A stretch of 21,854 nucleotides of DNA from Candidatus Zixiibacteriota bacterium (GTDB lineage Bacteria; Zixibacteria; MSB-5A5; GN15; FEB-12). The position numbers and the translations under genes are program-made. Positions 3,682 to 21,854 of the stretch are shown here, in pieces. The notes beneath the pieces are model-generated. The model had not been told where the DNA came from. It ran no database searches and saw only the letters and a program-made list of their open reading frames with translations. The stretch covers positions 1-21,854 of the forward strand of contig JBGSIV010000275.1 of assembly GCA_041742355.1 (NCBI GenBank). The letters are read 5' to 3'. The stretch's first letter is position 1; the number at the start of each line of letters is the position of its first letter.

Positions 3682-3957
3682 GGTTTTTGAGCGACAGAAT
3701 GTGACGGAAATACCGGCCCCGAACATCGCAAACGAGGCTATTTCGGGTCCAGTATACCGGCGGTCGCCCGCTCGATTACAACGACTTCAGTGTCTCCGAT
3801 GGTTGAGTCTCTTGTCCTTTCACGCCAGTACACAACCGCGCTCAGAGCCGGAAGTTCCGCAGACCCTCTATGGGGAAGCTACTTCTTTTGGTGGGGGTTG
3901 GGGCGGAATAGGCTCGCCCGGGCCGCCTGGTGCGTTCCCGGGAAGCGACACCGTGGT

Positions 3958-4028: not shown

Positions 4029-6467
4029 CTACCAGGTCGGGCAGGAGTCCGGAGTCTCCCCTCCTTTGAACAGGTATCCGACGAGGAGCACGAGGTCGGA
4101 CATGTTGATGACGCCGGCGCCGTCGATATCGGCGTGTTCGAAGCACATGGCGGCGGGGCCGCCTTTGAAGAGGTGGTTGACGAGGTAGGTCAGGTCGGAG
4201 ATGGCAACCTGGCCGGACTCATCAAGATCGCCACGCAGGAGGCAGCAGCCGTGCTCGCCGTGCCAGATGGCAAAACCGCAGGAGCCTTTTCCGCCGACTG
4301 ATACGAAAGGGCCGCCGAGGTAGAGATTTCCTTCGCACTCAACCAAGGCGTCGACACTCCAGCCGGATGTGACGCCGCTGCCGAACGTGCGCCACGATGT
4401 ACCATCCCAGCGACCGAACAACAGCCCGCCGCCGATCTGCTGCCAGCCGGCAATCACAAGTTCACCGTCATACACCAGCATGTCCTCGATGCGGAAGCCG
4501 CTGGGATCTGTGCCGAAAGGCGCAGGCATCCCGGACCACGTGCTGCCGTCGAATCGAGCGAGGCGCCCTGTCGAGATGCCATCAACGGTGTTGAAAGTTC
4601 CGGCAACGATGAGATCGCCGTCGGCAACGGTCATATCGAGGATATTGGCGGGAATGTCGGCGAAGCTCTCCCATTCGGCGCCGTTAAATCGTGCGAGGCT
4701 GCGTGGACCGGTGCCGTCGACCGGCGCGAACCATCCCCCGGCGAGGAGTTGATCCTGGTAGACAGTGAGTGCAGCAACAGACGCCAACGTGGAACTGGCG
4801 CTATCGAGGCCAGTTCCAAGTGCCGACCATTGGGCGCCGTCCCACGCCGCGACATAGCGGATCGGGAGGCCGTCGATACCGGTGAAATAGCCGCCGATGA
4901 TCAGCTTGCCTTCGAAGACCTCAATGTCTTCAACGAGGGATACGCCCCCACCCCCGGGAGTCATTGAGGTTGCCAGCGGAGTCCAGTTGCTGCCGTCCCA
5001 CAGGGCGATATTGCTCGCCGGGATGCCGCCGACGGCCGAGAAGTTACCGCCGACGACGAGTTGGTCATTCCAGACACCGAGAGCAAAAACCGAGCCGGTA
5101 ATGCCGCCACCGACTTCGGCCCATGAGGAGCCATCCCATTCGGCCAGACTTCGCAAAGGCACATCCTCTGTTCCGGTGATGTTGCCGCCGACTATCACTT
5201 TTCCGTTGTAGACTACCATGGCATCAATGTAGTTGAAAAGGCCCATTCCGGGCACCAGTGTCCCCACGGGTCCCCAGCCGGCCTCGGACCATCGGGTGAG
5301 ATTGGCGGCGCGTCCGTTCTCAGTCCCCCAGAATTGCCCGCTGGCTATGAGAGATCCGTTGAAGTCGACGAGATCGCTCACCGTTCCTGAGGATCCCGGT
5401 CCAGTGGAGGCACCCCAGATGCCTGTGCCCAGAGACAGCCACTCAGAGCCGCTCCATCGAGCAACACGGTTGACGGCGGTTGAGCCTGCTGTGAAGAACC
5501 GGCCGCCGATATAGATGTCATCCCCGACATGGCACATAGCGTAGATCGGACCGTCCGTGCCGGGGTACAGGTAGTAGCCCCAGAAGTAGCCATCCCAGGT
5601 CGCGATATTGGCGGCAGCGACGGTGCCGGCCGAATCGAAGCCGCCGGCGGCGATGAGAACGCCGTTGTGGACGAGCAACTGATTGACCGTTCCGTGAATG
5701 CCTCCGGCGACCGGTTCCCAGGCGGTGCCGTTCCATCGAGCAATCCCCCGAGCGGTCGAACCATCGAAGTCAACAAAGTCTCCGCCGACGTACAATTGGC
5801 CGTTGTATATCGCAAAGGTCCGGGATCCGCCGCCGTTGCCGTACTTGCTTCCTATCGTTACCCATGTGGTGCCGATGTACCGGTATATGTGATAGTCGGT
5901 CGCGAGTATCAGGGATCCATCGAATTCCGCGAGAACATAGTGGAACGACTGCCCGCCTACCGGGAGGTAAACCCAAGTGGTGCCGGTCCAGCGGGCGACG
6001 CCGGTGGTCGAGCTGAAGTAACCGGCTGCATAGAGCTCGCCGTTGAAGACATAGAAGCAGTCGGCGAGGTTGGTGAGTCCTGCACCCATGGACTGCCATG
6101 AGGTGCCGTCGAACCGGGCGACGTTGTTGAACGGCTGGCCGTCGATGCAGAGGCGTTCCCCGCTGACGATCAGGTCGCCATTGAAAACCGCAGAAGCCGA
6201 CAGGCGGTAGACGACACCCGAAATTCCGAAGCGATCGTCCCATCGGGCATCGTAAGGATTGGCCGAGGCGGCGAGAGGTGAATCGAACAGGGGTGCCAGG
6301 GCCGGGACATCTGATTCAGGTTGTGACTGCTCGATGTGATGCGCGCCGGGCACGAAGACGCTGTGGTCGATGTAGTCGGGCGGTTCCACTCCGGCCCATG
6401 AGGTCGAGAGTGGCAGAACTGCAAGAACAGCCCCCACGGCGGTCAGTTGCAGTAGCTTTGGACGCAT
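4029..6467 (-). CDS. Secreted beta-propeller repeat protein with C-terminal dockerin-like domain
   Basis: Signal peptide (MRPKLLQLTAVGAVLAVLPLSTSWA); ~14 repeats of LYVGGxF...A(R)WDGxxW; tail CCLLRGDLDESGQVAISDLTYLVNHLFKGG...ADIDGAGVINMSDLVLLVGYLFKGG..C; GGAGG RBS. Confidence 0.88.
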   Translation of the reverse strand: MRPKLLQLTAVGAVLAVLPLSTSWAGVEPPDYIDHSVFVPGAHHIEQSQPESDVPALAPLFDSPLAASANPYDARWDDRFGISGVVYRLSASAVFNGDLIVSGERLCIDGQPFNNVARFDGTSWQSMGAGLTNLADCFYVFNGELYAAGYFSSTTGVARWTGTTWVYLPVGGQSFHYVLAEFDGSLILATDYHIYRYIGTTWVTIGSKYGNGGGSRTFAIYNGQLYVGGDFVDFDGSTARGIARWNGTAWEPVAGGIHGTVNQLLVHNGVLIAAGGFDSAGTVAAANIATWDGYFWGYYLYPGTDGPIYAMCHVGDDIYIGGRFFTAGSTAVNRVARWSGSEWLSLGTGIWGASTGPGSSGTVSDLVDFNGSLIASGQFWGTENGRAANLTRWSEAGWGPVGTLVPGMGLFNYIDAMVVYNGKVIVGGNITGTEDVPLRSLAEWDGSSWAEVGGGITGSVFALGVWNDQLVVGGNFSAVGGIPASNIALWDGSNWTPLATSMTPGGGGVSLVEDIEVFEGKLIIGGYFTGIDGLPIRYVAAWDGAQWSALGTGLDSASSTLASVAALTVYQDQLLAGGWFAPVDGTGPRSLARFNGAEWESFADIPANILDMTVADGDLIVAGTFNTVDGISTGRLARFDGSTWSGMPAPFGTDPSGFRIEDMLVYDGELVIAGWQQIGGGLLFGRWDGTSWRTFGSGVTSGWSVDALVECEGNLYLGGPFVSVGGKGSCGFAIWHGEHGCCLLRGDLDESGQVAISDLTYLVNHLFKGGPAAMCFEHADIDGAGVINMSDLVLLVGYLFKGGETPDSCPTW

Positions 6468-8764: not shown

Positions 8765-10762
8765 CTAAAAGTTGGCGGGGACTGGGCGGTCGGCTGTGGC
8801 CGGGGCAGGTTCGGGCATCGCTGCGGCCGGCACGGGGTGTTCGACGGGAATCGTGACGGTAAAGAGTGCGCCATCAGCATATGAGTAGGTGATGTCGCCG
8901 TGGTGGGCGGTGATGATTTTGCGGCAGGCCAGAAGGCCGATGCCGTGGCCGTGGGCCTTGGTCGTGAAGCGCTTCTTGAACATGAGCGGCAGTTTGACCG
9001 GGGTCACGCCGGGGCCGTTGTCCTGCACTATGAATTCGAGGGTCGGTACGGCCGCACCCGGCACAAGCCCGGTGGAGACTTTGATCTTACGATTCTCGGG
9101 GCGCTCGAAGACGGCTTCGCCGGCATTGTAGATGAGGTTCACCAGGACCTGCTGCATGAGGCCCGGATCCATGTCGGCCAGCAGGACCTCGGGGGACAGT
9201 TCCATGACGAGGTCGGTATTGTCAAACTTGTTCTGCGGTTTGAGGAAGGCGACGACAATCTGTACGAGTTGATTGGCGTCGCAGCGGTCGAAGCGGGGTT
9301 CGCCGCGGGTGCCGTCGAGGAGTCCGTCGGTGAGTCGGGCGATCTTTTCCACCGTGCCGTGCATCAGGTCGAGTTTCTGATTGAGGCGGTCCATGTCCCC
9401 TTTGCGCAGGATGAGCGGCACCAGCTCGATATTCCCCATGAGGATGGAGAGGAAGTTGTTGATTTCGTGGGCAATTTCACCGGCCATTTCGCCGCGGGTA
9501 TAGTAGCGGTCGAGCCGGACCATCATCTCCTGGAAATCGTCGGACTGGGACATGTCGCTGACGATCAGGACATAGCCGATGCAGGCGCCCTGATCGTTGC
9601 GCAGCGTGGAGGTGACGAGGTTGGCGGCGAACTGCGAGCCGTCACAGCGCCGTCCGACGACCTCGAGGCCGTGTTCGTCGGCCTCTCCCTCGTGCCGCAG
9701 CGCCCGTTCTTCTATGTCGCTGACGAACAGCTCGCCCACCATTCGGCCCATCGCGTTGAGTTCGTCGCAGCCAAAGATCTCAGCCGCCTTGCGGTTGAAC
9801 AGGAGGATTCTTCCCGACGGGCCGGTCGTGATGACGCCAACCGGCGAGTGGTCGATGACGCTGGACAGGAGCAACTGCGACTCCTCGAGTGACGCGCTCG
9901 CATCGCGGAGCTTCTCATCGTAAACGGCGAGACGGCGGTGCCCGTCGTAGAGATTCTTCGCCAGTCGGGAGGAGACCTCCTCAAGCTGCGTCAGCTCTCC
10001 CTCGCCGTCGCGTTCGAGGAGACTGTACAACTCACCATCGGATGCTTTCTCGAGGCGGTGGATAACGCGCCGGAACGGTTCGGTGAAACGACGATGGATG
10101 AGGTACACAGTCAGGAGCGCGATGAGCGCGGCGCAAAGGAACAGGAGCACGAGGGCGTAGGTCAGAACGGTGCGGTTGGACAGAATCAGGTTGTGCTCCC
10201 AGGCGACGACGAGCATGCCGTGGGTTCCATCGGCGAACGCCACCGGCGCCCCGAGGACGATGTAGTCCGTGGCCATCGAGAGCGGGAAGACGGGCCAGGC
10301 GAGATCCGTGGTCGGGACGCCATGGGCGAGGCCGACTTCGCGCATCCGGGAGACATCCCAGGCCTGGACCGCGGCGGAAGCATCGCTCTGCTGAAACGTA
10401 AAGATCGGAGAGAACTCGAGGTTGTCGTGGCGGTAGATGGTCGCCTTGAGGATTTCCGGCTCGGCGCGGAGTGTCCCGCGCAGCGACTCCGCCAGGCCGT
10501 TGTCGGCGTTCAGCAGTGTGTTGGGGGCATCGCCGACGGCGACCATCTCCCCCACGCTCCGAGCCACGGACGCGAAGGCGGCCTGCTGGCTGCGGGTGCT
10601 GATATCGTGGGCGATATCGGTCTGGGGGGCAAAGATGATGAGGAACACCGCGGCGAACACAATGAACACCTGGACGATGATCAAGTGGCTCAGGCGGGCC
10701 ATGAGTCCCGGCTTGTGCCCCAGGCCAATTCGCTTCAGCAACGGTTCACGGGTCGGCTCCAT
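8765..10762 (-). CDS. Membrane sensor histidine kinase (HAMP, PAS, HisKA, HATPase)
   Basis: Two TM segments; HAMP-like segment; PAS GVITTGPSGRILLFNRKAAEIFG; H-box AGEIAHEINNFL; NLIYNA; DNGPG; FTTKAHGHGIGL. Start taken at ATG 10762 because the ORF-track extension overlaps promoter and sRNA signals. Confidence 0.9.
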   Translation of the reverse strand: MEPTREPLLKRIGLGHKPGLMARLSHLIIVQVFIVFAAVFLIIFAPQTDIAHDISTRSQQAAFASVARSVGEMVAVGDAPNTLLNADNGLAESLRGTLRAEPEILKATIYRHDNLEFSPIFTFQQSDASAAVQAWDVSRMREVGLAHGVPTTDLAWPVFPLSMATDYIVLGAPVAFADGTHGMLVVAWEHNLILSNRTVLTYALVLLFLCAALIALLTVYLIHRRFTEPFRRVIHRLEKASDGELYSLLERDGEGELTQLEEVSSRLAKNLYDGHRRLAVYDEKLRDASASLEESQLLLSSVIDHSPVGVITTGPSGRILLFNRKAAEIFGCDELNAMGRMVGELFVSDIEERALRHEGEADEHGLEVVGRRCDGSQFAANLVTSTLRNDQGACIGYVLIVSDMSQSDDFQEMMVRLDRYYTRGEMAGEIAHEINNFLSILMGNIELVPLILRKGDMDRLNQKLDLMHGTVEKIARLTDGLLDGTRGEPRFDRCDANQLVQIVVAFLKPQNKFDNTDLVMELSPEVLLADMDPGLMQQVLVNLIYNAGEAVFERPENRKIKVSTGLVPGAAVPTLEFIVQDNGPGVTPVKLPLMFKKRFTTKAHGHGIGLLACRKIITAHHGDITYSYADGALFTVTIPVEHPVPAAAMPEPAPATADRPVPANF

Positions 10763-10769
10763 AGCCCAT

Positions 10770-10796
10770 ATATCGGACGACGCGGGGAATGTGTTA
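10770..10796 (-). promoter_or_regulatory. Sigma-28 (FliA)-like promoter
   Basis: TAAC-N15-TCCGATAT versus consensus TAAA-N15-GCCGATAA; ends 7 nt before the kinase ATG. Confidence 0.5.
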
Positions 10797-10819
10797 GGGA
10801 GTCGTGACGGCGAAGGGGA

Positions 10820-10922
10820 ATAAAAAAACTGGGAGTGGTGGAGGGGGATGCCCGACTCTAACGTCAGGTGGCTGGAGAGTCCAGCGCACACCACTCCCAG
10901 AATTTTGTCAGTGGTAGTACAG
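10820..10922 (-). ncRNA. Candidate sigma-54-dependent small RNA with exposed anti-SD tract
   Basis: 12-bp closing stem 10829-10840/10889-10900, two inner hairpins, unpaired CAUCCCCCUC, 3' U7 tract, and an upstream -24/-12 promoter. Confidence 0.6.
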
Positions 10923-10932
10923 GATAGATCCG

Positions 10933-10948
10933 AGCAAACATTGTGCCT
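10933..10948 (-). promoter_or_regulatory. Sigma-54 (-24/-12) promoter
   Basis: Minus strand AGGCAC-AATGT-TTGCT matches TGGCAC-N5-TTGCW with exact GG-N10-GC spacing. Confidence 0.7.
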
Positions 10949-11119
10949 GCCCGGGAATTTCGGCGGGAACGTGGTTACATCTACTAACCTCTTTTACGTC
11001 AGATGGTTCCAATCGCGCCATGATTCTTCACAAAGATCCGTGCCGCCTCTCTGTTCATTCGTCAGCTTCTGTCATGCATCACCGTGCATACAGCATTCTG
11101 CAGAGAGCGCGATACAGGC

Positions 11120-11153
11120 AAAAGAAAGGCCGAAAGGTATGCACCTTTCGGCC
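11120..11153 (-). terminator. Intrinsic terminator of trxB
   Basis: Perfect 11-bp stem GGCCGAAAGGT/ACCTTTCGGCC with a 4-nt loop, then TTTCTTTT on the minus strand. Confidence 0.85.
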
Positions 11154-11176
11154 GGAAGGTTCGCCGGGCGGTCCGC

Positions 11177-12133
11177 TTAGACGAGTCGAGCCGCCTTCTT
11201 GTCTTCGAGCTGCTCGATGTATTTCTCGGCCGCTACGGCGGCGGTAGTGCCATCGCCGACCGCGTTGGTGATCTGGCGGACGAGCTGGGCGCGGACATCG
11301 CCGCAGGCGAAGATCCCCTGCAGCGAGGTCTCCATCTTCTCGTCAGTGATAATGTAGCCGCCCTGATCCTTGCGGAGCGGTTCGCGAGTAATGTCAGAAT
11401 TCGGTTTGAAGCCAATGAACGGGAAGCAGGCGCCGACCGGGAGCGTCGAGACCGCGCCGGTCTTGATGTTTTTCAGCGTGAGGTTCTGAATCTTGCGGCC
11501 GTCGCCGTTGATCGATTCGACCACGGTGTCCCAGATGAATTCCATCTTGGGGTTGTCGAACGCGCGCTGCTGGATGATTTTCTGGGCGCGCAGTTCGTTG
11601 CGGCGGTGGATGACGTAGACGCGGGAGCCGAACTTGGTGAGGAAATTACCTTCCTCGACCGCGGCGTCGCCGCCGCCGACGACGGCGATGACCTGGTCTT
11701 TGAAAAACGCGCCGTCGCAGATGGCGCAGTAGGAAACGCCGCGCCCGGTGTACTCGTATTCGCCGGGGACGCCGAGTTTGATGGGGGAGCCGCCGGTAGC
11801 GAGAATGACCGCTTTGGCGCGGTAGATGTTGCCGGAGGCGCAGGCGACAATTCGCTCGTCGCCGTCGCTGTAGATTTCGTCGACTTCTTCAGAGCCGATT
11901 TCCAGGCCGAACTTCTTGGCGTGGTCGGCCATGCGCATGGCCAGCTCGGATCCGGCGATCAGGTCAAAGCCGATGTAATCCTCGACTTCGCCGGTGTTGG
12001 CGATCTGCCCGCCGGGGAGGTATTTTTCCAGGCATATCACTGTGCGCCGGGCCCGGGCGCCGTACAGGCCGGCACACAATCCGCCGGGCCCCGCGCCCAC
12101 AACCACGATATCGTACTCGAATTCTTTCGCCAT
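11177..12133 (-). CDS. trxB: Thioredoxin-disulfide reductase
   Basis: GAGPGG FAD motif; GRGVSYCAICDG active site; GGGDAAVEE; IHRR; GIFACGDV; 318 aa. Confidence 0.96.
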   Translation of the reverse strand: MAKEFEYDIVVVGAGPGGLCAGLYGARARRTVICLEKYLPGGQIANTGEVEDYIGFDLIAGSELAMRMADHAKKFGLEIGSEEVDEIYSDGDERIVACASGNIYRAKAVILATGGSPIKLGVPGEYEYTGRGVSYCAICDGAFFKDQVIAVVGGGDAAVEEGNFLTKFGSRVYVIHRRNELRAQKIIQQRAFDNPKMEFIWDTVVESINGDGRKIQNLTLKNIKTGAVSTLPVGACFPFIGFKPNSDITREPLRKDQGGYIITDEKMETSLQGIFACGDVRAQLVRQITNAVGDGTTAAVAAEKYIEQLEDKKAARLV

Positions 12134-12274
12134 TGTAACCTCGTCAGCTGTTTTCTCACACGCGTTTGATGTCAGGCTTCACCGGTATCCGGCGACCGGA
12201 CCCATGCCCTCACGGGACATTACTGCATAACACCGGGACTCGTTCCGGGTTCACGGAATTTGCGGCCCATGAGT

Positions 12275-12832
12275 CTACCAGTCAATGCCTTTCTGGGCCA
12301 GGACCCCTTTCTGGTAGGGGTGTTTGACCTCGCGCATTTCGGTCACGAGGTCGGCTTTGTCCATGAGCCAATCGCGGGCGCCGCGGCCGGTGATGACCAG
12401 GTGCTGCGCGTCGTCGCGGGCGGCGAGAATTTCCTCTATTTCGTCGTCGGTCACCAGGCCGAGGTCCGCCGCGACGTTGAGCTCGTCGAGGATTATGAGG
12501 CGGTGCCGTCGGGAACGAATCGTTTCGAGGGCGAATTCCACGCCTTTGCGGGCGGCGGCCCGATGTTCCTCGAAATCCTTGGTATCGTCGACGATACCGA
12601 CAAACCCCTCCCCCACCGTGTGGAGTTCCACGTTGGGTTCGAGGCGTTTGACGCCTTTGAGCTCGCCGTACTTCCAGGAGCCCTTGACGAACTGGATTAT
12701 GCTCACGTTCCAGTTATACCCGACGGCCCGGACACACATGCCGAGGGCGGCGGTAGTTTTTCCCTTGCCGTTGCCGGTGTAGACGATGAGCAGCCCTTTT
12801 TCGGGCTGTTTGGCCCGGTCATCCGCGGTCAT
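12275..12832 (-). CDS. cobO: Cob(I)yrinic acid a,c-diamide adenosyltransferase (CobA/CobO/BtuR)
   Basis: YTGNGKGKTTAALG, QFVKG, ILDEL, VITGR, ADLVTEM..KHPY..G..AQKGIDW; start set at ATG 12832. Confidence 0.95.
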   Translation of the reverse strand: MTADDRAKQPEKGLLIVYTGNGKGKTTAALGMCVRAVGYNWNVSIIQFVKGSWKYGELKGVKRLEPNVELHTVGEGFVGIVDDTKDFEEHRAAARKGVEFALETIRSRRHRLIILDELNVAADLGLVTDDEIEEILAARDDAQHLVITGRGARDWLMDKADLVTEMREVKHPYQKGVLAQKGIDW

Positions 12833-18430: not shown

Positions 18431-21400
18431 TTACCTGAGCAGCAGCATCTTTCTTGTCTGCACCACACCATTGACTTCAAGCCGGTAGAGGTACACTCCG
18501 CTGGCGGCAACGGAGCCATCGGCGCTCGTGCCGTCCCAGGTGAGTCGGTATGTCCCGGCGGCCTGTGATCCCTTATGTAACGTAGTCAGTTTCTGCCCGA
18601 GCACGTTGTAAACGGCCAGGGTAACGTCGGCACGAGCGGTCAGGCTGTACTCGATAACCGTGGAGGGGTTGAACGGATTCGGGTAGTTCTGGCCCAGTTC
18701 AAACGATGACGGCAACGACTGGCCGGGATCGTCATCCCCAATTCCGGTCGAGCTGGCCACCGTGAAGGCAGCGTAGGTTCCCGCTTCGGAAATTGCGGAA
18801 GATACTTCGTTGAAGGCGGTGTCGACCTGTCCGCCAAGGAGGTTCCAGACGCGGGCGGACTCATCCCATCGGAATATGCGAAGCCACTCCTCATCTGCGG
18901 CGACGAGCAGCTCATCGTCAGAATAGCGAATGGTCAGCCTCGCGTTGAGCGCAGGGCTTGTCGCCCCGGTTATCGCGTGGGCCTGACCGGCCTGTTGCAC
19001 CGATATGTCCAGGCCGTTGGGGATTATGGGGTACGGCGACGACAGCAGCAGGAGGCTGTCCTCAGCGGTAACGGAGTCGAAAGCGAGCCCCAGCGATCCG
19101 TCGCCGGAGAAGATCTCACCCGTAGTCGAGTCGATCCGGACAATGCTGTAGAGGAGGTTTATCGGAAATTCCGTCGCCGGTTCATCGGGCGCGGTTACGA
19201 CGATTCCCCCGGTGCCATCAAAGGCGCCAAGCGCAAACTGGTACTGGTCCGGCGACGCTGCGGCGATGAACGGGCCCATGGTCGAGTCTTCCCCGAACAC
19301 CTGCAACTGCGGGAGAGCTGCAAAGGGATTGAGGAATGACGCCGCGATGCTGGTAACCCCGTTGGAGTAGTCTGCGCCAAAGACGAGCGGGTACTCCCCG
19401 GCAACCGGCTGCAATACCACCTCGCTGTCGTCGACACTCTGAACGGGGGCAAACCACCACTCATAGGCCAGCGGCTGCCGGGCGCTCTTCCCCACGCCGA
19501 TCGAGGCGCCCACAAAGGTATAGAACGAATCTCCCGGTCTTACGCCCAGCGCCCGGATCTTTCCGTTGGCTGCGGTTTGCCCCTGAGGGAGGACAAACAG
19601 ATTAGCACCGTCGGGGCGGACTACCCAGATGTCGACGCCGCCCAGTGGTGTTGTCGGCGTGCCCGGCGAGGAGCAGGTAATGATGCGGGTGGCGGCGTCC
19701 GGGGCGGTGTGGGCAATGGGGAAGTCGATCAATGCCCCAACATCGAACGTCCAGTTGGTCGAATCGTTGTTTGGACCCGGCAGGTAATCGTTTCCCGCCG
19801 CGAGCACGCGTTCATCGGGTTTGCTTATGGGAGCGAAGATGGCGTCGGCGGAGTAGGTACCCTCGAAATTGACTTCGAAGAGCCCCCAGCACGAAGTGCC
19901 ATGGGTGGTCCACTGATCAGAATTCTGGCAATCGGCTCCGGCGTAGCGATCGGCCGTCGACATCTCCGAGGTATACGGATGCGGTCCGGGGTACTGGTTA
20001 TCCATGAATCCGTATATTGGCGTTGCGGCGCATCGAACAGTCCCCTCGGCAAAATGGTACTCATCGCGGAATCCGAGTCCGAAGTGTCCGAACTCATGGG
20101 CCAGCGTCCGCGCAAAGATCGCTGAATTAGGAAGGAGTGGGTTTTCGTCGAAGCTGCCCTGGATGTTCGAAGGACGGTTGCCGAAGAAGTCCCGGGGCAT
20201 GAACAGATGCCACCCCGCGTACTTGATACCCCCCGGGTTCGCGCGGGGCCACTCGATGTTGCTGGCGTGGATCCGGATATCGGCTTCACCCCAGAGATCC
20301 TTGTTATCGAGAATCACGATAGTGTCGAACCGCGCCTGACCGTCGGTGACATCGTACAGATAATTGGAGGCGTGGCGGAAGCCGTTCTGCAGCCCGGCGA
20401 TGTAGGACAGTTCGGCATCCCATTCAACCGATGCCACGAGGTTGAACGACACGGTCGTGTGCTGGAGCGTGATGATCTGTTCGGCGACGCTGTCGACGCG
20501 ATCAAACCGAATGTTGCCGGTTGCGTTCAGGTGCTTATTGTCGATTCCGACTGAGTACATCGTGCCCAGATGCGCGAGGTGTTTGCTGAAGGGTTGGCTG
20601 TGGAGAAGTTTCGACACACGTATCGTATCTCCTGTCGCCAGAGGCAATTGACTTAAAGGAATCAGGCCGCCGCTGTTGGTGGTGAATTCGCCTAGAGGGG
20701 TTTCGAGGAAGTCGGAACCTGTGTGGTCGACTTTCGCAATGGCGACGGTTATGCCGGCGAGCGGAGTCTGGGTGGTGTCGACGATTCGGAGTGCGGGCAC
20801 GGGGTTCATCACGAAGGCCCGTCCGAGGCCGCCGATTTTCCCATAGCCGACGATCTGTCCCTTCTCGTTGATGTCCGACGCAAAGTACAACTGGTCCCAG
20901 CCTGACCCGGCCGGAATCAAGTCAGCGAGTTTGCGCATACCCACGATCGTGTCGTAGACGAAAGCCTGCTGCTGGTTGGCTGCGTCGTACGCCTGACCGA
21001 CGATCACGCCGAATTCGTTGATGGCGAGCGCTTCCGAACCTCGTCCGCCAAAGGCCGGCAGTTCATACATCAGACCATCCTCCCAGAAGAAACCCCGCCA
21101 TGCGGTGCAATCAAGGTCGACACATGACCAGCCGACGATAACTCCTTTGTTGTTGATGTCGTTCGCCTGGGCCTCAATTCCCCCAAGAGTGCCGAGGAGT
21201 ATCAGGGAGTCATTGCGGAAAATGCATGCCTCGCCATAACAGTCCTGCGTACAGTCGGTGTACCAGTATCCAACGGCAACCCCGCTGTCATTAATCGCGA
21301 GGGCCTCAGATCCCCAGTAGCTTGTAGGCAGATAATCGAAGACGCCGTTGTGGTAAATGTACAGGCTGTCATACGTCCAACCCACCACCTGCCCCAGATT

Positions 21401-21784
21401 GTTCATGCCTTCCGTGGAGCCGAGACCGAGGTCTATGCCGTTAAAAAAGCCGTGGGTTCCATCCGGCTTCGGACCAGTCCCGAGATAGTCCCCGAGGTCA
21501 TTAATTCCTCTGGGAGTGGTTCGGTTGTATCCGTGAAAGTAGATTTGGTCCGGGTATGCAGCGCCCGGCTCCCAGATGCACATGATGTCGGTAGTGAACT
21601 GGGCTGATCCGGCGCCGGACACCACGCCCAGGTTGTTGATGGCTGTCGCGCTACTGAAGTTCCCGAAGTTCGTGGAAGGGGGATCAAGCTGGAATATTTC
21701 GTACGCTTGCCCTCGGGCGGTGTCCGCGCCAAAGAGAAGGACTACGACGACGCAGACCACTGCAACTTCGACGCGGTTAACCAT
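18431..21784 (-). CDS. Secreted multidomain protein: HAF repeats + CLCA-like Zn metalloprotease + T9SS-type-A/FlgD-like CTD
   Basis: Signal peptide; repeats such as LGTLGG..A.DINNKG.IVGWS; ASNYLYDVTDGQ..F; HEFGHFGLGFRDEY; C-terminal LGQNYPNPFNPST...YNVLGQ...WDG...SGVYLYRL...KMLLLR. Start set at ATG 21784. Confidence 0.85.
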   Translation of the reverse strand: MVNRVEVAVVCVVVVLLFGADTARGQAYEIFQLDPPSTNFGNFSSATAINNLGVVSGAGSAQFTTDIMCIWEPGAAYPDQIYFHGYNRTTPRGINDLGDYLGTGPKPDGTHGFFNGIDLGLGSTEGMNNLGQVVGWTYDSLYIYHNGVFDYLPTSYWGSEALAINDSGVAVGYWYTDCTQDCYGEACIFRNDSLILLGTLGGIEAQANDINNKGVIVGWSCVDLDCTAWRGFFWEDGLMYELPAFGGRGSEALAINEFGVIVGQAYDAANQQQAFVYDTIVGMRKLADLIPAGSGWDQLYFASDINEKGQIVGYGKIGGLGRAFVMNPVPALRIVDTTQTPLAGITVAIAKVDHTGSDFLETPLGEFTTNSGGLIPLSQLPLATGDTIRVSKLLHSQPFSKHLAHLGTMYSVGIDNKHLNATGNIRFDRVDSVAEQIITLQHTTVSFNLVASVEWDAELSYIAGLQNGFRHASNYLYDVTDGQARFDTIVILDNKDLWGEADIRIHASNIEWPRANPGGIKYAGWHLFMPRDFFGNRPSNIQGSFDENPLLPNSAIFARTLAHEFGHFGLGFRDEYHFAEGTVRCAATPIYGFMDNQYPGPHPYTSEMSTADRYAGADCQNSDQWTTHGTSCWGLFEVNFEGTYSADAIFAPISKPDERVLAAGNDYLPGPNNDSTNWTFDVGALIDFPIAHTAPDAATRIITCSSPGTPTTPLGGVDIWVVRPDGANLFVLPQGQTAANGKIRALGVRPGDSFYTFVGASIGVGKSARQPLAYEWWFAPVQSVDDSEVVLQPVAGEYPLVFGADYSNGVTSIAASFLNPFAALPQLQVFGEDSTMGPFIAAASPDQYQFALGAFDGTGGIVVTAPDEPATEFPINLLYSIVRIDSTTGEIFSGDGSLGLAFDSVTAEDSLLLLSSPYPIIPNGLDISVQQAGQAHAITGATSPALNARLTIRYSDDELLVAADEEWLRIFRWDESARVWNLLGGQVDTAFNEVSSAISEAGTYAAFTVASSTGIGDDDPGQSLPSSFELGQNYPNPFNPSTVIEYSLTARADVTLAVYNVLGQKLTTLHKGSQAAGTYRLTWDGTSADGSVAASGVYLYRLEVNGVVQTRKMLLLR

Positions 21785-21854
21785 GGAACACCCTTTCGAC
21801 AACCGTAACGTGGAGTTTTATGATCTAATATAAGGGACCGACAGGATTTGTCAC

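Follow-up and report, generated by a model that had tools for sequence, protein, structure and literature searches.

Small RNA (sRNA) families seldom extend beyond one family or order. CrcZ of Pseudomonas is an sRNA under sigma-54 and an enhancer-binding protein, and both Qrr and CrcZ need Hfq. Such control is also reported for Qrr of Vibrio and for flagellar sRNAs of Campylobacter jejuni (PMC10162802, PMC11187230), and GlmY is reported to have a sigma-54 promoter, upstream activator sites and two-component control (PMC3045617). Unpaired C-rich seeds are known in Hfq-independent sRNAs (PMC2790875, PMC8216469).

The locus described here lies in a 21,854-nt stretch of DNA from a Candidatus Zixiibacteriota bacterium (contig JBGSIV010000275.1 of assembly GCA_041742355.1; the window). 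As in the GlmY/GlmZ system, the sRNA gene adjoins sensor kinase genes, in this order only, yet the RNA has no Rfam match, RapZ was not found in the source genome, G000, and the fold and C-rich junction are unrelated. Unlike the situation with Qrr and CrcZ, Hfq (PF17209) was not found in any of 30 genomes searched here. The source host shares flagellar genes, a FliA-type sigma and CsrA with C. jejuni. The likeness to RsaE, RoxS and FsrA of Firmicutes (PMC2790875, PMC8216469) lies in a conserved unpaired UCCC-type tract, the feature by which C-rich anti-Shine-Dalgarno (anti-SD) sRNAs are recognized, and in a host without detected Hfq; a G-rich second sRNA, RNA-B, is a candidate partner in the manner of RosA. 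However, there is no shared sequence or Rfam similarity with these RNAs, there is a single tract, located in a three-way junction that the paired ends close, and control would be by sigma-54. Judged by sequence, the RNA would work like a sigma-54-controlled sRNA such as GlmY or Qrr with an RsaE/RoxS-like C-rich surface, while being a member of none of these families.

The RNA, its fold and its distribution

The element is very probably a free-standing small folded RNA gene of about 100 nt on the minus strand. All the parts named in a sequence-only reading of this DNA were found in place on that strand by inspection of the sequence:

10922-10901, minus strand: 5' leader from the predicted start at about 10922, the start being placed by promoter spacing
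10900-10889, minus strand: 5' strand of the closing helix P1, core GGGAG.GG.G nearly invariant
10885-10871, minus strand: hairpin P2, stem covarying, loop length and sequence free
10868-10851, minus strand: hairpin P3, stem covarying, loop different between families
10850-10841, minus strand: unpaired junction strand, CCCCCUC invariant, likely the functional surface
10840-10829, minus strand: 3' strand of P1, 12 bp with 10900-10889
10828-10822, minus strand: U7 tail, probable 3' end in the source genome

The perfect 12-bp closing helix that had been proposed to enclose two hairpins was confirmed at 10900-10889/10840-10829 and has no bulge, and none of 200 shuffles was as stable as the predicted fold (-42.9 kcal/mol, z = -5.65). 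The proposed unpaired anti-SD tract stood for ten bases, which are exposed with an unpaired probability of 0.94-1.0, and failed for the final C of CAUCCCCCUCC, which is paired in the closing helix (0.04); the CCUCC anti-SD core is therefore just partly exposed. The RNA contains one conserved GGA only, paired inside P1 and not in a loop.

Conservation of the fold in relatives was borne out by covariation, which supports all three helices. Among 43 diverse sense-strand hits, changes on both sides were seen in 15 of 23 pairs and 96.9% of cells pair, in an alignment that was fitted to the model and whose kin are not independent; none of 500 shuffles reached this and slid controls gave at most 8 pairs. 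Changes on both sides affected 5/5 pairs of P2 and 5/6 of P3, while seven of ten core pairs of P1 never or almost never vary. Individual folding, a check separate from the alignment, returned P1 with two hairpins in 163 of 171 cores; six more have P1 with a single hairpin, as in family f3. The sequences of P2 and P3 vary freely, and we infer that both hairpins are scaffold; only the P1 core and the junction tract (UCCCCCUC, unpaired) are fixed among relatives. The CCCCCUC junction strand occurs in 72 of 72 distinct covariance-model hits, its C run measures 5 to 7 nt, and 157 of 171 folds leave CCCCUC more than 80% unpaired; these counts are somewhat high because the sets were collected by a model or pattern built on the same features. 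A degenerate copy (L285, G026:C59:1591-1662), located by position and not by the model, has a shortened and remodelled interior and keeps both P1 and CCCCUC. The 5' leader, by comparison, varies among relatives in length and sequence. A U-rich tail follows P1 in 107 of 171 loci; of the remaining 64, 13 carry a hairpin and U run of their own within 75 nt. Since in some families P1 lacks the U tail and is followed by a separate terminator, termination alone does not account for its conservation. We also considered a C-G-C triplex formed within the molecule by the tract and P1, but rejected it by reasoning, as the turn would have no linker bases. Taken as a whole, the sRNA probably regulates other RNAs through its exposed cytosine run, which does not change.

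Searches with a covariance model derived from 29 copies placed the sRNA in 128 of 151 genomes sampled across Zixibacteria, representing 15 of 19 families, and in 51 of 67 genomes of other orders; with blastn, an 80-nt core without flanks was recovered from 30 of 41 genomes at 82-95% identity. With neither the exact pattern nor a broader model was it found in family f2 (0/5), family f7 (0/11) or single genomes of f15 and f17. It therefore seems that the sRNA is widespread yet dispensable in whole lineages, and as rpoN and csrA are both present in 151/151 genomes, neither gene explains why it was not found in f2 and f7. Among the matches listed, most named motif-bearing records are labelled Zixibacteria, and near-identical copies stand under the depositor names Ignavibacteria, Calditrichota, Bacteroidetes and others, these being depositor labels only.

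The RNA had been described as unassignable to a known family, and Rfam 15 indeed returned no match at the element (E up to 5, positions 9500-12500) or at the copies in L032, L033, L206, L209, L211, L214, L223 and L224. Nor does it appear to stand in for SRP RNA or 6S RNA: SRP RNA is encoded elsewhere in the genome, the sRNA does not match RF00013, and 6S RNA (RF00013) was found in none of the 30 genomes searched, with or without the sRNA. We found no published Zixibacteria sRNA in a search that covered subscription literature thinly, and an unnamed listing in motif-discovery supplements is possible. On sequence evidence, this is a real, phylum-wide, undescribed family with a complete predicted sigma-54 promoter.

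Nine extra copies of the module lie inside longer non-coding units that lack the strict sigma-54 motif:

L032:2947-3025 and 3686-3766: extra module copies
L033:3163-3243: extra module copy
L222-L227: extra module copies

In six of the nine, a sigma-70-like promoter that contains a palindrome lies no more than 300 nt away, and several are arranged in tandem arrays behind such a promoter, the palindrome GTGASCGSTYAC resembling a LacI-family operator. Arrayed copies are flanked by further conserved hairpins, one of which closes a second C-rich loop before the terminator, and two of the extra-copy loci adjoin fibronectin-III proteins.

Promoter and enhancer

Two elements precede the RNA:

11102-11089 (one mismatch) and 11088-11075 (perfect), minus strand: tandem TGCA-N6-TGCA dyads, predicted enhancer-binding-protein sites
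10948-10933, minus strand: sigma-54 (-24/-12) motif, AGGCAC-N5-TTGCT

The sigma-54-type promoter proposed from the single sequence proved to be conserved: a loose scan, which includes two second-class copies, places a motif 40-89 nt before P1 at 151 of 169 loci, against 375 of 3380 shuffles (11%); a stricter pattern retained 148 loci. The strict motif [AT]GGCAC-N5-TTGC[AT] occurs just nine times in the 4.37-Mb genome, where rpoN is present, as the earlier proposal demanded. The TGCA-N6-TGCA dyad, which the sequence-only reading had not picked up, is most frequent 120-170 nt before the -24 box. Of 131 non-redundant upstream regions, 35 have it in perfect form (0.26% of shuffles) and 97 with at most one mismatch (4.6% of shuffles). 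As predicted elements, promoter and dyad together have the layout of an enhancer-dependent promoter, and the conserved promoter, upstream enhancer and rpoN would place the RNA in the class of sigma-54-dependent sRNAs.

The source genome encodes 22 sigma-54 activators, and a perfect dyad stands at four of its 77 non-coding sigma-54 motifs. No perfect dyad was found at the sigma-54 promoter of a flagellar gene that we take, from its sequence, to be flgB-like; the sRNA is therefore probably not a simple flagellar class gene. The other perfect-dyad motifs are at G000:C34, C125 and C228, and their genes are a possible regulon of the same activator. The C125 and C228 motifs go with a 392-aa protein, which we take to resemble a pilus-assembly protein, and a 964-aa secreted-looking protein, while that at C34 precedes a GGA-rich non-coding stretch. 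This stretch was considered as a CsrA sponge and rejected, for only its promoter is conserved. At three loci, L006 (G023), L003 and L004, there is no sigma-54 motif and a YCGAT(A/T)-type motif lies just upstream, which suggests a switch to a sigma-28-like promoter.

Proposed mechanism and its alternatives

The best explanation, to which we give about an even chance, is a standalone sRNA that base-pairs with mRNA-type targets through its open C-rich strand. One of the 22 activators would act at the TGCA-N6-TGCA sites to switch the gene on. Pairing between the 5' and 3' ends would stabilize the RNA without Hfq, and the three-way junction would keep the C-rich strand open. This strand could then pair with G-rich single-stranded RNA at sites of the GAGGGG type, which would lie in mRNA leaders and possibly also in a second sRNA's loop, and pairing would alter the translation or stability of the partner, like RsaE and RoxS. 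That the C-rich strand stays open and fixed while its scaffold varies points to recognition there. Start-codon pairing forms no part of the model: the repression by SD-plus-AUG pairing that had been suggested found no support, as 37 of 171 loci lack the CAU and no enriched or conserved ribosome-binding-site target was found. Seed matches occurred at 79 of 3268 gene starts versus 92 of 2906 coding windows, hence no enrichment, with crude gene calls and a short seed. Between two families, 2 conserved strong targets were observed versus 2.4 expected among 754 orthologue pairs, a comparison of two genomes based on crude gene calls and on 1.6 of the 2.1 Mb of the second. Exact GGAGGGGGATG occurs ten times in the genome, none of them at a gene start in the start lists. 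Two different 16S rRNA 3' ends are present (G000:C77 and C106), both with the standard GAUCACCUCCUUU, and one of the two copies may be contamination of the bin.

The fixed paired sequence of P1 is not explained by the seed model, and this keeps alive a second explanation, which we hold at perhaps half the weight of target pairing: a protein-binding decoy or scaffold comparable to GlmY, CrcZ or Y RNA, in which a protein reads the fixed P1 and C-rich strand and is titrated or redirected by the RNA. The lack of an mRNA target signal would fit such a role, as would the insertion of the same 70-nt module, whole, into longer non-coding transcripts with another type of promoter (nine copies). Yet the known decoy partners were not found, namely Hfq in the genomes mentioned above, and RapZ (PF03668) and Ro60/TROVE in G000 (93.8% complete), the genome searched for RapZ. 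CsrA is encoded in all 151 genomes, but the sole conserved GGA is inside P1 instead of a loop, and the several loop GGA of CsrB/RsmY-type RNAs are absent. As for Y RNA, TROVE was not found and P1 has no bulged helix.

A candidate RNA partner came from sigma-54 promoters without a following ORF. This second conserved sigma-54 RNA, RNA-B, is about 105 nt long and has no Rfam match:

G000:C217:1642-1750, plus strand (also L260:1534-1642): RNA-B

It lies downstream of an enhancer-binding-protein gene and consists of a conserved 5' UGUCAUUUU, a U/C-rich linker and a terminator with a GAGGGG loop. RNA-B was detected in 75 of 151 genomes and is essentially order-wide; a search of other orders for the activator gene that lies beside it, run at an overly strict threshold, recovered 2 of 30. 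Its loop is the exact complement of the CCCCUC tract (6 bp, -12.1 kcal/mol for isolated strands). Of 20 further hits, two weak ones were set aside as false; the other 18 are clear homologues, and all of them have the loop.

Two readings build on this complementarity. The broader one, which we regard as speculative and rather unlikely, is that P1 and the C tract form a portable, chaperone-free recognition domain of an undescribed Zixibacteria RNA network, in which loop-to-junction pairing (CCCCUC/GAGGGG) of the two sigma-54 sRNAs would cross-regulate two enhancer-binding-protein pathways, and copies of the module would form part of longer non-coding RNAs with several domains, transcribed from a sigma-70-type promoter under operator control. 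The narrower one, a shade less probable still, is a dedicated sRNA pair whose main job is CCCCUC-GAGGGG kissing, one RNA sponging the other like RoxS and RosA. Here the GAGGGG loop exactly complements the invariant tract and is itself unchanged in 27/27 aligned copies while the terminator stem of RNA-B covaries; just 2 of 2797 genomic GAGGGG sites sit in such a hairpin, and one genome, G019, is without both RNAs. The match is, however, a post hoc find of 6 bp only, and co-occurrence is partial: the loop is kept where the sRNA was not found (f2, 3/3; G151). Moreover, RNA-B was detected only within the order: 67 genomes from other orders gave it a single weak hit, apparently a false one, versus 51 of 67 for the sRNA, and nothing like it was seen in 1.6 of the 2.1 Mb of G071.

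Base-pairing by a standalone sRNA also has to be weighed against a role in cis, and here the neighbouring genes are informative:

12133-11177, minus strand: trxB, thioredoxin-reductase-like, upstream neighbour in many, not all, relatives
11153-11120, minus strand: trxB intrinsic terminator, an 11-bp hairpin with a U-rich tail that separates the sRNA from upstream transcription
10797-10771, minus strand: sigma-28-like promoter motif of the kinase, CTAA-N16-YCGATA, separate from the sRNA
10762-8765, minus strand: PAS histidine kinase (HAMP-PAS), neighbour of the sRNA in this order only

The trxB terminator lies upstream as had been claimed (hairpin 11153-11128). The kinase probably starts at ATG 10762, and a GTG at 10894 inside the sRNA is a frame artefact. 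That the sRNA is a cis-acting attenuator or riboswitch-like 5' leader of the kinase, with P1 and the U tail as a conditional terminator, is largely refuted and in our judgement very improbable. In this order a same-strand PAS kinase nearly always lies just downstream of the sRNA, and in the source genome a leader stretch is complementary to the 5' strand of P1, but the leader is not conserved, the kinase carries its own promoter motif, and the next gene in other families encodes YdjC, UvrC or a PLP enzyme, or is convergent (MutS2-like, SpoIIE-like, TonB receptor, peptidase or secreted protein; six Pfam-supported cases). The element thus lacks the constant position before related same-strand genes that marks a riboswitch or attenuator. 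Sensor and RNA also part company by gene loss: G023 retains the sRNA at a locus from which the PAS kinase has gone, whereas G151 has kept the kinase and cleanly lost the sRNA from the trxB-kinase gap (L284). The separate sigma-28-like promoter, and a downstream gene that elsewhere differs or converges, are the reasons for which we reject a simple kinase 5' UTR, an outcome that the earlier reading had itself named as a threat.

YCGATA is found 20-90 nt downstream of the sRNA in 97 of 171 loci, and the genome encodes a FliA/WhiG-family sigma scoring above the cut-off. YTAA-N15-17-YCGATA has 35 matches genome-wide, before many genes that are not flagellar-looking, which suggests a broad FliA/WhiG-type regulon in the source organism. 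Elsewhere in the window, 4029-6467 and 18431-21802, minus strand, encode large proteins that look secreted and whose C-terminal domain is dockerin-like or FlgD Ig-like.

Finally, the ideas that this is a dispersed repeat, an element acting at the DNA level or the beginning of a gene for a small antisense protein can practically be dismissed, for although some genomes carry extra sRNA copies in tandem arrays and a plus-strand SD and AUG open an ORF at 10848-11180, the sRNA is single-copy in the 4.37-Mb source genome (no paralogues by blastn or nhmmer) and so is not a repeat here, viral contigs gave no match (0), the U-G wobble pairs of P1 fit the minus strand, and the antisense ORF, whose length ranges from 4 codons to over 110, has no ATG at 37 of 171 loci.

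Implications for Zixibacteria

The same junction tract and helix core recur across 15 of 19 sampled families in a group where Hfq was not found, and the sRNA offers a clean marker for post-transcriptional control in a lineage that has not been cultured. With a defined promoter, an enhancer and a candidate partner RNA, the main questions are testable in vitro or through community transcriptomes, with no need for culturing.
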